The notes: a model not told the origin generated them from the letters alone. DNA of 64,000 nucleotides from Mariniblastus sp. (GCA_022447605.1 JAKVBG010000016.1:28376-92375); one strand, 5' to 3'. Counted from the stretch's first letter, positions 9,860 to 43,632 are shown. Program-made: numbers and translations.

Positions 9860-10164
9860 GGCAGGCCGTCCAGAGTTGGCAGCTCGGTTTTCTCCCGATC
9901 CTGCGCCCAGCTGGTGGTGGTCTCGAGGTAACCGCCTCGTAGCATTGAGCAAGTCAGTTTTGATTTCGTCAGAATTTTCATTGATTAGTCATCGGTCTTA
10001 GTAGTTTTTGCTGCCATTCAGGAATTTCTTCAGAACGTTGGATCCCGCCATGCGTGTGTTGCCGGGGGAAATTCTAGCGAACCGACCGGTGGGTTGCTGT
10101 TCATGGTACGTTAACTGTTTAAAATCCGAATGAGAATGACAACCGGCAATTTTTGATCGAAGAA

Positions 10165-11604
10165 ATGCAAAACAAGACACTCGCTGATATTTCCCGCACC
10201 AAGACGATTGCCACGGTCGGACCCGCCTGCGAGTCGTTGCAGGTCCTGAAAGATCTGATCGACCGGGGCGTGGACGTTTTCCGGCTTAACATGGCCCATG
10301 GAGATCGGGAGAGCCACGAAACGGCCATCGCCCGCATTCGCCAGGCGGAAGACGACCTGCAGACCTCCGTCGCGATCCTGATCGACCTGGCCGGTCCGAA
10401 AATCCGTCTCGGTCAACTGGTCGAGGACCCGCGGGTAGTTGCCAATGGTCAGACCCTGACGTTTGTCCGGGGTGCCGAACCAAACTCTGCCGATGAGTTG
10501 ACCTGTACGTATGCTGGCCTCGTCGATGAAGTTCAGCCGGGCCAGGCAATTGTCCTGGCCGATGGTCTGGTCCGCCTGCAGGTGACGGGAAAAACGGAAG
10601 ATCGAGTCGAATGTGTCGTGGTCGATGGCGGCACGTTTCGCAGTCGCCAGGGGGTCAACCTGCCGGCCACGCAGCTCAGCATTCCTGCGCTGGGAGAAAA
10701 AGACCGGGATAATGCCATCTGGGCGACGAAGCAGTCAATCGATTTTGTCAGCCTCAGTTTCGTCCGGAACGCGTCCGAGATTGAGGAGTTGAAAGCGCTG
10801 CTGCGGGAACACGATTGCCAGGCGGGCGTGATCGCCAAAATCGAAAAACGGGAGGCGCTGGACAACCTGGAAGAGATCGTCCAGGCCTGTGATGGCGTGA
10901 TGGTTGCCCGTGGTGACTTGGGTGTTGAAATCGAGATTTACAAGACACCGGTCGCCCAGAAAAGAATTATCCACACCTGCCTGTTGCATCGCAAACCGGT
11001 GATTGTTGCTACACAGATGCTGGAGAGTATGCATACGTCCAAACAGCCGACGCGTGCCGAGGTCAGTGATGTGGCCAATGCAATCCTGGATGGTGCGGAC
11101 GCCTGCATGCTGTCGGGGGAAACTGCGATTGGACAATACCCGGCCGAGGCGGTCACCATGATGCAGCAGATCATGCTGGAAACGGAGCAATTGCTGAAAC
11201 GATCCGCCTCGAAGATTTCGGGCCCCGACGATTCCCATCAGAACGACGTTGCCGAGGCCGTGATGTTCGGCGCGGCGCAAATTGCCCAGCAGCTGGAGGC
11301 CAGGATCGTCGTGATATCGAGTTCGACCGGGGAAACTGCCTTGATCAAATCGAAACAGCGCGATTTTATCCCGACCGTTTGCCTGACCCACCACCGGTCG
11401 GTGGCCCGTTTCATCTGCCTCTACTGGGGAGTGATCCCTGTTTGTACCGATCAACCCCACCCGCCAGAACAGTTCCGGGCCTTTGTCAACGAGTGGGCAA
11501 AGTCCGTCGCCATGGGCCAGATCGGGGACCCAATCGTGATGGTCACCGACAACCAGTGGATGCCCGATGTCCACGACAATATTCTGGTCGGTCGCATCTC
11601 CTGA
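10165..11604 (+). CDS. pyk: Pyruvate kinase
   Basis: TKTIATVGPA, RLNMAHG, DLAGPKIR, AKIE, GVMVARGDLGVE, ATQMLESM, MLSGETA; ORF opens at TTG 10153. Confidence 0.99.
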   Translation: MQNKTLADISRTKTIATVGPACESLQVLKDLIDRGVDVFRLNMAHGDRESHETAIARIRQAEDDLQTSVAILIDLAGPKIRLGQLVEDPRVVANGQTLTFVRGAEPNSADELTCTYAGLVDEVQPGQAIVLADGLVRLQVTGKTEDRVECVVVDGGTFRSRQGVNLPATQLSIPALGEKDRDNAIWATKQSIDFVSLSFVRNASEIEELKALLREHDCQAGVIAKIEKREALDNLEEIVQACDGVMVARGDLGVEIEIYKTPVAQKRIIHTCLLHRKPVIVATQMLESMHTSKQPTRAEVSDVANAILDGADACMLSGETAIGQYPAEAVTMMQQIMLETEQLLKRSASKISGPDDSHQNDVAEAVMFGAAQIAQQLEARIVVISSSTGETALIKSKQRDFIPTVCLTHHRSVARFICLYWGVIPVCTDQPHPPEQFRAFVNEWAKSVAMGQIGDPIVMVTDNQWMPDVHDNILVGRIS

Positions 11605-11643
11605 CTGCCGTGTAGCTATTTCGATCAGGCGCGCGACAGGCAC

Positions 11644-11670
11644 AAAAAAACCCGCCGGTGAGGGCGGGTT
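11644..11670 (-). terminator. Rho-independent terminator (U-run on the minus strand; may also stop pyk)
   Basis: Minus strand AACCCGCC-CTCACC-GGCGGGTT running into TTTTTTT. Confidence 0.85.
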
Positions 11671-11897
11671 GTTTCGTCGTGAAAAACTGGTGGGCCGAGT
11701 TCGTATTTCGGCGATCGTTGGTCACGGCATGGTGTGACGGTTCCTTAGATTCACGAGTGACGTCCCTGTCTGAAACGTTGGCCCAATCCGGAGGATGTGG
11801 TTTCTCCCGCTCGGCTTCCCGTGGCCAAATCCCGTGAGTGATCTGGCACGATTTGCCCGGGGTCCACATGCGCCGTTTCGAACGTCGTCTTGGGCAT
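11644..11897 (-). ncRNA. Candidate ~250-nt small RNA (sigma54 promoter, eight GGA motifs, own terminator)
   Basis: Bounded by a -24/-12 promoter at 11908-11923 and the terminator at 11644-11670; no convincing protein ORF; nested complementary segments. Confidence 0.55.
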
Positions 11898-11907
11898 CCC
11901 GATCTAA

Positions 11908-11923
11908 AGCACTTGCCGTGCCA
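11908..11923 (-). promoter_or_regulatory. Sigma54 (-24/-12) promoter
   Basis: Minus strand TGGCACG-GCAA-GTGCT; GG (11922-11921) and GC (11910-11909) exactly 12 nt apart; one mismatch to TGGCACG-N4-TTGCW. Confidence 0.65.
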
Positions 11924-12069
11924 AACCGTGGCAAACCGTGGCAAAACAGCTGGGCCGCCATTTTACGACGCGCGGCTCGGTGCGGTGACTCGCCTTGTCT
12001 GTACTTTTGCTAATCGATTGTAGGAATTACCGATTGACTGCTTCCGCTTGACGGGTGCTGCCCATCACT

Positions 12070-12507
12070 TCAGGTGAGGTTTTTCAGCAAGCTGGATGTG
12101 ATAGCAGCAAACACGTCCCGCTTCTCATCGAATTCCCGACTCTCTGCCTGGCAACAGACGACCAAGGTCTGTCCTGGCATCGAGATGACGCTCAGGTTGG
12201 CCGTCACGAGGAAGTCGAGGCAATAGAAAAAAGCATCGGTACCGATGCTGGGATAAACCTCGTCCAGCAGGCTGGTCGAAACCTGGAATTCGACGTCCTG
12301 ATACTGGTCGACCAATCCCTGTTTCGCGTTGTCCAAAAGTTCCGCGGCATCGACATCGGGGGGGAACACGACCAGCGTCCAAAATCCACCCTCGGGGGTT
12401 TCCAGTGAGACTTCCCCCGAAAGTGGGTCGTCTTCAAACGTGTCACTGAGTTGCCACGTCTCGGGATAGGTAAATTCGATCTGGTCTCGTTTGAAGGTGG
12501 ATGTCAT
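12070..12507 (-). CDS. Hypothetical acidic protein (possibly PsbP/Mog1-like fold)
   Basis: Protein-like ORF from MTSTFKRDQIEFTYPETWQL; the fold guess rests only on the FxYPxxW start pattern. Confidence 0.65.
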   Translation of the reverse strand: MTSTFKRDQIEFTYPETWQLSDTFEDDPLSGEVSLETPEGGFWTLVVFPPDVDAAELLDNAKQGLVDQYQDVEFQVSTSLLDEVYPSIGTDAFFYCLDFLVTANLSVISMPGQTLVVCCQAESREFDEKRDVFAAITSSLLKNLT

Positions 12508-12687
12508 GGTCTTGCTAGCAAATAGGTATTGGACGTCTGTTCCTTTATATCCGATTCCATCCGGATGAACATTGCTGGCAATTCGGATCATGAGGAATGA
12601 GTTGAGATTCCGATATAGATACAACAGGCTGTGGGTGTTATGGTTGGCCGCTGCGCTGATGACGGGTGACTCTCCGAGGAAGAAAAG

Positions 12688-13626
12688 TTGAGCCAATTGT
12701 TGAACCTGAGATTGCGAAAGCTGACCCGTGGGTCAATCTTGGTTCTGGCATTGGCCGTCGTCGCTTCTACCGGCTGCCACGCCTTTCGGCCATTCCAGCA
12801 GGTCAACAACTCATTGGCCGATGCGCGACTTTGGGAACAGGGGGGACGGGAAGCCCTTTCTCATGGAAATATTGACGAGGCAAAAAACTGCCTCCGAAGA
12901 GCGATCAACAACGCGCCGGGTGATCGACAGATTCGCGAGCAATTGGCTGATATCTGCATGGAGCGAGATGAATATCCGGAAGCGATTGCCGAGTTGACAC
13001 GAGCGGTGGATCTGGCTGAAGAGGATGCCGAATTGCGGGTCAAGTTGGGACGCGCCTACTTGAAATGCGGGAAGCTGATTCCTGCCCAACGACAGGCCGA
13101 GTTGGCCCTGGAGACTGACCGGCAGTTGGCCTCGGCCTGGGAATTGTGTGGCCAGACCCATTGGGCCAAGAAAGAATTACCGGCAGCGGTGGCTGATTTG
13201 CAACGGGCTTTGAGCATTGAGCCAAAACGGCGCGGTGTCCAGGTCCAGATTGCCTGTCTACACCGGCAAATGGGCGAATCGAAGCGCGCCCTGTCAGGTA
13301 TTGAGCAGCTGCTGAGTCAATATCCGGATGGCCAGGAGCCACAGGATGCTCTTCTCCTGCAGGGAGTTGTGTTGATCGATCTGCATCAGTACTCATCGGC
13401 CATCGAACAGTTGCAGATGGCCGTCAACCGTAGCGATGCGACCTGCGAGGCGTTTGTTCAGTTATCACGGGCCCAATTCCTGGCCGGGCAACCATCACTG
13501 GCCCGGTCCACCTTGACCCGTGGATTGGAGAGGTACCCGGCAGAAGCGAAGTTGACCGCCCTGTTGAACCAGTTGCAGGAAATCGACAGCGGCCATGTGG
13601 CGACCACCGGATCATTGAAGCGTTGA
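12688..13626 (+). CDS. Tetratricopeptide-repeat protein, probable lipoprotein
   Basis: Signal-like N-terminus ending STGC; repeated helical A/L/G TPR patterns; TTG start. Confidence 0.8.
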   Translation: MSQLLNLRLRKLTRGSILVLALAVVASTGCHAFRPFQQVNNSLADARLWEQGGREALSHGNIDEAKNCLRRAINNAPGDRQIREQLADICMERDEYPEAIAELTRAVDLAEEDAELRVKLGRAYLKCGKLIPAQRQAELALETDRQLASAWELCGQTHWAKKELPAAVADLQRALSIEPKRRGVQVQIACLHRQMGESKRALSGIEQLLSQYPDGQEPQDALLLQGVVLIDLHQYSSAIEQLQMAVNRSDATCEAFVQLSRAQFLAGQPSLARSTLTRGLERYPAEAKLTALLNQLQEIDSGHVATTGSLKR

Positions 13627-41444: not shown

Positions 41445-42857
41445 CTACCGCAGTTCATATTCGTTGAGCTTGCGATACAGATTTCGCTCACTGATTCCCA
41501 GAATCGTCGAAGTCTCTTCACGGTTTCCGCCTGTCAGTTTTAACGTATTCTCGATGGCCCAGCGTTCGATCTCTTTGAGGGAGCGGCCGACCAGGTCGGA
41601 GTTGTCTTCTAGTGATATCATTGCCGACGGCCCGGTCGATTCGCTGACAGGTTGCTCGTCGATCAAGTCGGGCGAAAGGTCATCCACCCCCAGGATCCCG
41701 TCCAGGTCCATGACGACCAGGCTCTCAACCACGTTTTTCAACTGCCTGACATTTCCTTTCCAGTCAAAGTCAAGCATCCACCGTCGCAGTTCCTGCGTGA
41801 ATGTTTTCGTCTGTTTGTGATTTTTCTTGTTCGCCTGTTTCCTGAAATGGTCCGCCAGGGGCAGGATGTCATCTCGTCGCCGGGAAAGTGGATCCAGATG
41901 GACGGTCACGATTTTCAGCCGAAAATAGAGATCGCTCCGAAACCGGCCGGCTTCTACCTCCGCTTCGAGGTCCTTGTTCGTTGCCGCCAACACACGGACG
42001 TTGACGTGGATCGGTTTGTTGTCGCCAACGCGTGTTATTTCCCGTTCTTCCAGGACGCGCAGCAATTTGATTTGGGTTGGCATCGGCATGTCGCCGACTT
42101 CGTCCAGGAACAACGTGCCACCGTTGGCGTACTCAAACTTGCCTTGCCGATCGGTAATGGCATCGGTAAAGGCACCTTTGACATGCCCAAACAACTCGCT
42201 TTCTACCAGATGCTCGGCAACGGCTGCTGTATTGATTGCCACGAACGGCTTTTTCTTGCGCGGGCTGTTCTGGTGGATTGCCTGGGCAATCACATCTTTA
42301 CCTGTCCCGGTTTCACCCGTGATCAATACACCGGCGTCGGTGGGGGCGATGCGGCGCACCCGATCGACGACCCGGTTCATGCTGTCACTTGCGTAAACCA
42401 GGTTCTCGAATCCGAATTTTTCGTCCAGCCGACGTTGCAACTGCTGATTGGTCTGTCGCAATCTGACGGAGTCTGCCGCTTTCGAAGCGACGACCTGGAG
42501 TCGCTTGGGCGTAATTGGTTTCTCGAGAAAATTGAAGGCGCCCTGCCGCATGGCATCCACGGCGCGAGGTACCGTGGCGTGACCGGTTACCATGATGACT
42601 TCACAGTCCGGCTGCGTTTCCTTGGCCAGACCCAGGATGTCCATTCCGTCGACATCATTCATCATCAGGTCGGTAACGATGATATGGTAGATGTTCTCCT
42701 GGATCAGTTCCGAGCCCTCCTGGCCGGACGTGGCGCAGGTGCATTCGAACCCGATCCGGTCAAGGCTCTCGGTCATTGCCCGGGCGAGGTCCTTGTCGTT
42801 ATCGACAATCAGCACACTGATCGCTTGGATTTTTGTATTTTCTTGCTCTTCGTCCAT
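41445..42857 (-). CDS. Sigma54-dependent response regulator (NtrC family: REC-AAA+-HTH)
   Basis: Receiver VDND...TDLMM...FLEKP; GETGTGKD, ESELFGH, GAFTDA, LFLDEVG, RSDLYFRL, GNVRQL; C-terminal HTH. Confidence 0.96.
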   Translation of the reverse strand: MDEEQENTKIQAISVLIVDNDKDLARAMTESLDRIGFECTCATSGQEGSELIQENIYHIIVTDLMMNDVDGMDILGLAKETQPDCEVIMVTGHATVPRAVDAMRQGAFNFLEKPITPKRLQVVASKAADSVRLRQTNQQLQRRLDEKFGFENLVYASDSMNRVVDRVRRIAPTDAGVLITGETGTGKDVIAQAIHQNSPRKKKPFVAINTAAVAEHLVESELFGHVKGAFTDAITDRQGKFEYANGGTLFLDEVGDMPMPTQIKLLRVLEEREITRVGDNKPIHVNVRVLAATNKDLEAEVEAGRFRSDLYFRLKIVTVHLDPLSRRRDDILPLADHFRKQANKKNHKQTKTFTQELRRWMLDFDWKGNVRQLKNVVESLVVMDLDGILGVDDLSPDLIDEQPVSESTGPSAMISLEDNSDLVGRSLKEIERWAIENTLKLTGGNREETSTILGISERNLYRKLNEYELR

Positions 42858-43632
42858 GCCGCGATGATACAAAAACCGGCGGCCAGCGTCGACCAGCACT
42901 CGTTTCAACTCCCGTCCGGAATGAAGGGACCAGGTCTCGGTGAGCGGTAACGCGTCGCTTTGGCAGACCGGGATCAGAGCGTTCCTGCATCGGCAGGTGT
43001 GGTTTCCGCAAGCATGTATGGGATGGATTTAACGTGGAGGCAATTTCAGGTTATTCTCGGGAAATAAAGGGAGCCCCCAGTGACGGTTCCCAAAAAATGG
43101 ACGGAATGGCCCCCGTTTCGCTGATTTCTTACGGGTTGCATATTATCTCGACAATCTTCCTGGTGGGAGAACTCTGTTTGTCAGGTTCTTGTTTTACGGC
43201 CGCTTTCGAGAACTGGGCAACAGCGCCCAGCTGCGCGCGGATGTGCCGAAACGAGAGTCCCCTCTGGCGATACTCTCGTTTTTCCTGCGACCAGTACCGG
43301 TCGCTTCCTTTGCGACCCAATTGCCCGCGGTCGGATGGCTAGATCCCTGCGTCGTCATGCTGGGTCAACGGGTCCTGATCCGATGATGTGAATGATCGGA
43401 ATAATCTGGCCAATTCAGGTAGCGGGGGTATTTGGATCGCGAAAACCGGGATTCCTGAACGGGGATTAATGGTTCAATAATCGCCCGGGCGAAGATAGAA
43501 TTAATAGCTGCGAGGTAGCCGTCCCACCGCTGGCCCGGCTGTCTCACGAACCCCACAGGGATGACCGTCCAACGGGGCGTAGGTCGGCTGTGTGGAATTG
43601 ATCGATCCAGGTTTTCTTGATTTCCAGACCCC

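Follow-up and report, generated by a model that had tools for sequence, protein, structure and literature searches.

Small RNAs (sRNAs) transcribed from sigma54 promoters are already known, the examples being GlmY/GlmZ, Qrr and CrcZ. The Qrr RNAs act via Hfq and a conserved seed, and CrcZ titrates Hfq/Crc through repeated A-rich motifs. In the case of GlmY/GlmZ of Enterobacteriaceae, the sigma54 promoters are activated by GlrR/QseF at upstream TGTC-N10-GACA sites (PMC3045617). Here, we describe a locus at positions 11644-11923 of a stretch of 64,000 nucleotides from the planctomycete Mariniblastus sp. (GCA_022447605.1, JAKVBG010000016.1:28376-92375; this whole stretch is called the window, and positions are counted from its first letter). 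On its minus strand, the locus carries the predicted gene of a non-coding RNA of about 253 nt. Judged from its sequence, this RNA belongs to a previously undescribed family of structured sRNAs that is, as far as searched, confined to Pirellulales. To our knowledge, and in the literature that we searched, there is no regulatory small RNA with a known function in Planctomycetota. The window lies on contig C68 of a genome of 5.0 Mb that is 94% complete and whose nearest relatives are labelled Mariniblastus sp. or Pirellulaceae metagenome-assembled genomes (MAGs).

The predicted transcription unit is bounded by a promoter and a terminator, as an initial annotation of this DNA had claimed. The sigma54-type -24/-12 promoter (TGGCACGGCAAGTGC, 11909-11923, minus strand) was read from the sequence and has the canonical GG-N10-GC spacing. 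Based on the usual geometry of such promoters, the predicted +1 is A11897 (minus strand), 12 nt 3' of the C in the -12 GC. The other end is given by an intrinsic terminator (11644-11670, minus strand), for which the terminator scan reported an 8-bp stem with six G-C pairs, a 6-nt loop and a run of seven T; the G+C-rich hairpin occupies 11670-11649 and the T-run 11650-11644. With these coordinates the unit is about 253 nt long (11897 to about 11645, minus strand), and the interval 11644-11923 spans exactly the distance from the T-run to the T of the -24 element. The position of the gene was also described correctly: it lies between pyk (10153-11604, plus strand) and a hypothetical gene that has its stop codon at 12070-12072 of the minus strand and encodes a PsbP-like protein. 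The terminator may end pyk too, from the opposite side. In the minimum free energy (MFE) fold of the RNA, the 5' part is a long interrupted rod, followed by a three-way junction and the terminator. Two of the pairings proposed earlier, AUGUGG/CCACAU and CCCG.../...CGGG, are part of this fold; a third, GAAACG/CGUUUC, is absent from it.

The part of the RNA that is conserved throughout the family is a core at 11671-11763 (minus strand), which is matched by our covariance model R1 with 79.3 bits (E = 3.5e-15) and is present in a single copy in the genome. Within the core, about 80 nt (11677-11756) are predicted to form a three-way junction. It is closed by helix P1 (7 bp, 11750-11756 with 11677-11683), which is followed by an invariant 5x5 internal loop (UCUAA, 11745-11749, opposite AGUUU, 11684-11688), the short helix P1b (GG, 11743-11744, with CC, 11689-11690) and the hairpins P2 (11721-11738) and P3 (11694-11712), all on the minus strand. 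The same architecture was obtained with every one of the 18 seed sequences when these were folded singly: a P1 of 7 bp, the symmetric 5x5 loop, P1b (GGC/GCC) and a junction with P2 and P3. In addition, RNAalifold found compensatory changes in P1 and P1b on a MAFFT alignment made without regard to the structure. R1 was built from the 18-sequence alignment and then used to align 71 homologues. In the R1 alignment 94.7% of the pair cells hold standard pairs, and 15 of the 19 pairs are changed on both sides (223 cells). The percentage paired, the compensatory cells, the further pair types and the covariation score observed were matched by none of 500 shuffles, the number of compensatory pairs by one of 500, and pairing fell to 29-56% in a control in which the partners were slid. 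Covariation at syntenic regions, which had been named as a test of the RNA, is present in the helices of the core. The most conserved columns are those of the GG/CC clamp and of the internal loop on both its sides, and not those of the hairpin loops or the 5' end; the stems of the two core hairpins vary in sequence among relatives with their pairing kept. The internal loop probably forms the non-canonical pairs U.U, C.U, U.U, A.G and A.A beside the GG/CC clamp.

The core does not stand alone. Homologous loci in 18 genomes share an upstream dyad, the promoter, CGUGAAUCUAAGG, two hairpins, CCAGUUUUUCACG and a terminator. DNA search and synteny led to the corresponding intergenic region in many genomes of the genus. 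There, the order of elements is a palindrome, the promoter about 100-190 bp downstream of it, a variable spacer, the block CGUGAAUCUAAGGC, the hairpins, the block GCCAGUUUUUCACG and the terminator, and the end of GCCAGUUUUUCACG is complementary to the start of CGUGAAUCUAAGGC. A promoter of the form TGGCAC-N5-TGC is found upstream of the core in 62 of the 71 homologues and TGGCGC-N5-TTGC in two more, and a terminator-like hairpin with a T-run follows the core within 200 nt in 60 of the 71 (median distance 38 nt). The sigma54-dependent small RNA that had been postulated at this locus is thus borne out, as far as sequences can tell, by promoter, dyad, structured core and terminator that recur at homologous loci of Pirellulales. 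There is hardly any doubt that it is a real, conserved, structured RNA gene, and its transcription is very probably sigma54- and enhancer-dependent.

The dyad of the window, GGTAATTCCTACA (12019-12031, minus strand), starts 108 bp upstream of the T of the -24 element and is an imperfect copy of TGTAA-N3-TTACA. Using the pattern [TG]GTA-N5-TAC[AC], which has a chance of about 0.015 to occur within 250 nt, a dyad was found in 55 distinct homologue sequences, at a distance of 94-190 bp (median 128) from the -24 element on its upstream side. Positions left free by the pattern are also kept, with A as the fifth letter in 50 and T as the ninth in 44 of the 55, and this gives the 13-bp family consensus TGTAA-N3-TTACA. 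The exact dyad is rare genome-wide, with 1-2 sites in each of three near-complete genomes, compared to up to 14 for a reversed control. The dyad is probably the binding site of the activating bacterial enhancer-binding protein (bEBP). The genome of the window encodes one RpoN and eight bEBPs, all of which have HTH_8 domains: four are of the REC-AAA-HTH_8 type, two have FHA-GAF and one has GAF domains, and one is PspF-like. No bEBP gene adjoins the RNA gene, and the cognate activator could not be assigned among the eight. TyrR boxes read TGTAAA-N6-TTTACA, and the half-sites of the dyad resemble them; this is a lead only, and an ACT-PAS TyrR-type bEBP is absent among the bEBPs of the genome.

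Several observations relate to promoter and dyad. A gene for an NtrC-type bEBP (REC-AAA-HTH_8) is located at 41451-42908 of the window, minus strand (G000 C68:69826-71283), which puts it about 30 kb away from the RNA gene. In the genome of the window there is no other good pair of dyad and promoter; two weak pairs were seen, one of them before a csrA gene. In genome G126 from another family, an extra site (L217:1501-1830) has an extended palindrome around TGTAACAATTACA with CGGCACAGCTTGTGC 168 nt later, and it is located before the gene of a secreted Cys/Pro-rich protein. In a genus-wide search by pattern, the dyad with a perfect sigma54 promoter was detected before a small gene in two genomes (L233:1711-1917 in G047; L246:1434-1709 in G024). 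The encoded proteins are basic and have 69-92 residues, an Arg/Ser/Lys-rich N-terminus, one transmembrane helix and no Pfam match. A weak homologue of this gene is present in the genome of the window (L247, from 505; G000 C127) and has TTGGCATCAAACCTGCT about 150 nt upstream. This small gene may share a regulon with the RNA. A tandem triplication of a 10-nt unit (TTTGCCACGG, TTTGCCACGG, TTTGGCACGG; 11916-11945, minus strand) was detected by Tandem Repeats Finder with a period of 10, 3.0 copies and 95% matches; its third copy is the -24 element, and the first two read GCCAC. It was not seen in the promoters of relatives, among which G051 has one partial extra copy. In a subclade of four genomes (G009, G071, G077, G004; loci L109, L110, L114, L115) the core follows an OmpA-like gene (...NRRIELVIYPE...) at a distance of about 90 nt. 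In these loci it has neither sigma54 promoter nor dyad and converges with the PsbP-like gene; this looks like a promoter swap.

R1 finds one copy of the core in the genome of the window and one each in 48 of 72 genomes of the genus. With strict filters, 23 of 151 genomes sampled from the order match, and one other family accounts for 10 of these, with 10 of 10 genomes positive; in about 115 genomes sampled from other orders of the class there was no match. Even with laxer filters there was no match in five complete genomes, four from sister genera and one from the genus of the window, and these five have no sigma54 promoter beside the neighbour gene. An exact-pattern scan of one genome per species (185,579 species) returned 80 loci, of which 48 were confirmed by R1. 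The confirmed loci are labelled Pirellulaceae, Pirellulales, Thermoguttaceae or other planctomycete, with the exception of one from an 'uncultured Chloroflexia' MAG (L196, contig CAVWFY010000017.1). That contig carries the PsbP-like gene, dyad, sigma54 promoter, core and terminator, and since this is the complete module of Pirellulales, an error in binning or labelling is probable. We also considered whether the genome of the window has a second copy: R1 has a weak match on C133 (E = 0.17) with neither promoter nor dyad, which was judged to be due to chance. Two genomes of other families have two matches each. The pair in G220 (C61, C64) is identical and possibly an assembly duplicate, and the pair in G170 (C13, C93) is divergent and possibly represents true paralogues. 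The search of Rfam that had been proposed returned no family of release 15 at E <= 10 in 11000-12700 and none at the gathering threshold in the window; in 12 diverse homologue loci there was none at E <= 0.1. All that these scans gave was terminator-like noise. No description of the RNA was found in the literature that we searched.

How could such an RNA work? In the explanation that we favour, sigma54-RNA polymerase would sit at TGGCAC-N5-GTGC until one of the eight bEBPs, bound at the 13-bp dyad about 110 bp upstream, switches on the promoter, and the intrinsic terminator would end transcription. The RNA would then be composed of three modules, a fast-evolving 5' arm, the universal three-way junction of about 80 nt and the terminator hairpin. 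P1, P1b, P2 and P3 would hold the invariant UCUAA/AGUUU loop, clamped by GG/CC, and a protein partner other than Hfq may recognise this loop or use it as a scaffold. The variable arm could be a lineage-specific effector, with CCCGCA apical loops in other families and a 5'-terminal CCAAGACGACGUUC in the subclade of the window, and the RNA as a whole would act in trans as a signal-induced riboregulator. We give this explanation in its entirety, a sigma54-driven, trans-acting riboregulator with a protein-recognition core, a probability of roughly 0.55. That the core is a protein-binding module is, as a claim by itself, plausible but tentative, and we would not bet on it at even odds.

Several points weigh against this explanation. 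The 71-homologue alignment was fitted to the model, so that its pair counts favour the structure; this bias does not affect the folds of single sequences or the MAFFT result. The whole RNA folds just modestly better than shuffled sequences (z-score = -2.2), and start site, length and sigma54 dependence are predictions. A recognisable sigma54 promoter is missing in 7 of the 71 homologues, four of which make up the subclade with the OmpA-like gene, so that this type of promoter is not obligatory and the invariant feature is the core. The distribution of the RNA is patchy. The PsbP-like neighbour was considered as its protein partner and set aside: the protein is very acidic (pI 4.05), belongs to a fold family without known RNA binders and is unlikely to bind RNA.

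The main rival to a protein-binding core is a base-pairing sRNA that has no dedicated protein and in which the junction only stabilises the molecule; here the seed would be a 5' stretch, CCAAGACGACGUUC in the window and GUUCGACCCAG or the CCCGCA loops elsewhere. The evidence comes from the 5' arm (11764-11896, minus strand), which is lineage-specific, is 20-231 nt long among homologues and is neither conserved nor alignable across the family. Its first 20 nt or so (CCAAGACGACGUUC) are conserved only in the four closest genomes, among which the rest of the arm is less well kept. Compared to G008, the arm has a 15-nt identical run near the 5' end and is otherwise about 50% identical. In the other families, a single-stranded GUUCGACCCAG precedes a long hairpin with CCCGCA in its apical loop, and GUUCGACCCAGUUGG is common to them at the same place. 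The motif CCCG[CT][AG] occurs in 17 of the 23 other-family arms, mostly unpaired, versus 3.9 +/- 1.8 in shuffles, and a CCCGCA-type motif in just 1 of 40 genus arms. In the loci L073-L096 of other families, CCCGCA or CGCGCA occurs in two loops, that of the terminator and the apical one of the long 5' hairpin. A 5' seed combined with a terminator is, moreover, a common layout of sRNAs. However, no seed is shared by the whole family, and genus members with short arms (20-50 nt) have neither of the two motifs. The strongest conservation is seen in an internal loop framed by covarying helices, and Hfq was not detected in the genome. By a crude method, the RNA was no more complementary than background to the regions in which the two linked genes start, and 9-10-mer complements of the motifs do not cluster at obvious gene starts. 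Base pairing as the sole principle is accordingly possible but on the doubtful side.

The arm also bears on two further suggestions. By MFE, the arm of the window folds into a long rod with interruptions, and it had been proposed that the RNA might be 6S-like. In that case the rod would mimic open promoter DNA and sequester RNA polymerase. RF00013 has no match anywhere in the genome, which leaves the slot of a 6S RNA formally unfilled, and a 6S gene elsewhere can therefore not be used as an argument. But the rod is confined to the subclade of the window, most homologues having arms of 20-80 nt, and the conserved element is a three-way junction and not a rod with a central bubble. There is no similarity to 6S models of Rfam at E <= 10, and a signal-gated sigma54 promoter would be ill-suited to a housekeeping 6S RNA. 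A 6S-like function is thus very improbable. The same applies to the view that there is no RNA gene at all, but a leaderless mRNA for a protein of 48 residues (MPKTTFET...) or a chance promoter beside a shared terminator or 3' untranslated region. An ATG exactly at the predicted +1 does open a frame of 48 codons, and two homologues that lack a sigma54 promoter have the core about 150 nt downstream of the PsbP-like gene, which would allow the two to be transcribed together. The ATG is, however, replaced by CTA in G044 and by CTG in G008, and G051 and G044 have frame-shifting indels; the peptide is therefore not conserved beyond three to eight residues. Furthermore, the open reading frame, which had been put forward as a third possibility, ends within the arm, upstream of all conserved parts. 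Promoter, dyad and structure are conserved far beyond chance, and the RNA is also found inverted relative to the neighbour gene or away from it. We see very little room for this view.

The initial annotation had proposed a GGA-rich RNA that titrates CsrA/RsmA. In this explanation, the GGA motifs of the arm and the AAGG of the core would bind one or more CsrA paralogues. The eight GGA words listed all exist, but only seven lie inside the transcript, since GGGAUG straddles +1; the arm holds five of the seven, and a sixth spans the junction of arm and core. The excess of GGA that had been claimed vanishes with an appropriate background. The first 160 nt contain 7 GGA compared to 5.46 +/- 1.53 in dinucleotide-preserving shuffles (P = 0.24), and the whole RNA 7 compared to 6.75, at a density of 2.8 per 100 nt; the earlier expectation of about 3 was too low because it ignored the GG/GA-rich composition. 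Across 5' arms of the family, GGA is not enriched either (z = 1.8 in the genus, -1.6 in other families). None of the seven GGAs of the window lies wholly in a hairpin loop of the MFE fold, and in predicted folds of genus members 11 of 89 do; two of the seven are kept in G008. The GG that is conserved, in AAGG, is paired with CC in P1b and is followed by C in 55 of 69 sequences, not by A, and the arm that bears the GGAs is lineage-specific. No CsrB, CsrC or Rsm model of Rfam matched at E <= 10. A sponge of the CsrB/RsmZ type, in which GGA motifs would be enriched, conserved and exposed in hairpin loops or single-stranded spacers, is therefore not upheld.

The genome, on the other hand, would offer partners for an RNA that titrates CsrA. 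When csrA was looked up, as had been suggested, six genes (PF02599) were found in the genome of the window, on contigs C148, C1, C24, C113, C133 and C121 (loci L005-L010). There is only one fliW, next to the csrA on C1, and no Hfq (PF17209) was detected in this 94% complete genome. Ten other Pirellulales genomes have 7-14 csrA copies, which makes 6-14 across Pirellulales. The csrA at C24:15204 has a sigma54 promoter at C24:15140, and a published survey likewise noted a sigma54 promoter before csrA in Planctomycetia (PMC12316311). Several csrA leaders carry UAAGGA-type motifs. In the RNA itself, P1 is preceded by a GGA at no more than 16 nt distance in 23 of the 40 homologues from the genus and in 9 of 23 from other families, and a predicted hairpin loop with GGA, e.g. 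ACACCGGAUGU, occurs in 11 of the 40 genus arms. But genomes without the RNA have 7-8 csrA copies, and copy number does not correlate with its presence. Taken together, titration of CsrA by arm GGAs and AAGG is improbable. A variant with similarly low odds is that the invariant loop (AUCUAAGG opposite CCAGUUUU), possibly together with the GGA before P1, is the site for a FliW-less CsrA paralogue or for a wholly unknown RNA-binding protein. If it were true, this would be the first case outside Proteobacteria of an sRNA that antagonises a protein of the CsrA family; one structured high-affinity site would replace an array of GGA motifs, and the RNA would be made only when a sigma54 enhancer-binding protein fires.

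Two genes are linked to the RNA across families. The first one encodes the PsbP/Mog1-like protein of 145 residues (12070-12507, minus strand) and adjoins the RNA in 37 of 47 loci. The protein is cytoplasmic and acidic and has no significant Pfam match of its own; weak PsbP_2 matches were obtained with 10 of 18 homologues. Its AlphaFold2 model has a predicted local distance difference test score (pLDDT) of 91.7, and the top matches in Foldseek are PsbP, DcrB, Eag/SciW and Mog1. The reading frame could be extended by 63 codons upstream to a TTG (12070-12696, minus strand); since homologues have about 145 residues and relatives have stop codons inside the extension, the start is probably the ATG at 12507. 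The gene is mostly upstream of the RNA and on the same strand, sometimes convergent, and the RNA keeps its own promoter. The second linked gene (12688-13626, plus strand; 31 of 47 loci) is divergent from the first and encodes a TPR-repeat protein (Pfam TPR families) with a lipoprotein-like N-terminus that contains the motif ...VVASTGC. RNA duplexes with the start regions of the two genes had z-scores of 0.7 and 0.1 compared to shuffles, with a crude method that is unsuited to long sequences. The gene for pyruvate kinase, pyk (Pfam PK and PK_C), is convergent with the RNA gene; this adjacency holds in loci of the genus only, and pyk was not detected beside the RNA in the other families.

The locus is a complete and well-defined unit for experiments, with a dyad, a promoter, a fold backed by covariation, a terminator and a gene neighbourhood, and the RNA is a well-supported candidate family that is suitable for submission to Rfam. 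It provides a handle on the signals that are sensed by the sigma54 regulators of Pirellulales, on post-transcriptional control in organisms without Hfq but with 6-14 CsrA paralogues, and on the ligand of the invariant internal loop.

The RNA can be compared to several known systems. Like the CsrB/RsmX/RsmY/RsmZ RNAs, it is non-coding, ends at a terminator and occurs in a csrA-rich genome, and some genus homologues have one or two GGA loops, but GGA is not enriched, conserved or exposed in loops, no model matches, and its promoter is of the sigma54 type whereas those of CsrB/Rsm are of the GacA/UvrY type. With the orphan 'Gene; sRNA' motifs of Rfam it has in common that it is defined by covariation and has a narrow taxonomic range; unlike them, it has a full unit of dyad, promoter and terminator together with a conserved pair of neighbours, and it is not in Rfam 15.

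Other sRNAs are gated by a bEBP and sigma54. These include Qrr1-5 of Vibrio, controlled by LuxO, and CrcZ/CrcY of Pseudomonas, controlled by CbrB. Their activators are bEBPs of the response-regulator type, the type to which four of the eight bEBPs found here belong by their REC-AAA-HTH_8 architecture. In contrast to Qrr and CrcZ, the conserved part of the Pirellulales RNA is a single structured junction and not a seed or a repeat, and no Hfq was detected. GlmY/GlmZ resemble the Pirellulales RNA in having stand-alone genes that are transcribed from a -24/-12 promoter, with a conserved palindrome for the activator some 100-200 bp upstream, and in forming several hairpins with an intrinsic terminator at the end. 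They are also recognised by a protein, RapZ, and do not act by GGA repeats, and the same may hold for the Pirellulales RNA. On the other hand, GlmY/GlmZ belong to a different phylum, have no similarity in sequence or structure (no Rfam match), and have three activator sites compared to one dyad of other sequence and spacing in Pirellulales. An overlapping sigma70 promoter, as in GlmY/GlmZ, was not seen at the Pirellulales RNA. The Rfam models of Qrr, CrcZ and GlmY/GlmZ had no match at E <= 10 in 11000-12700. The Pirellulales RNA thus joins the sigma54-driven sRNAs already known, GlmY/GlmZ, Qrr and CrcZ, as a new family of that kind.

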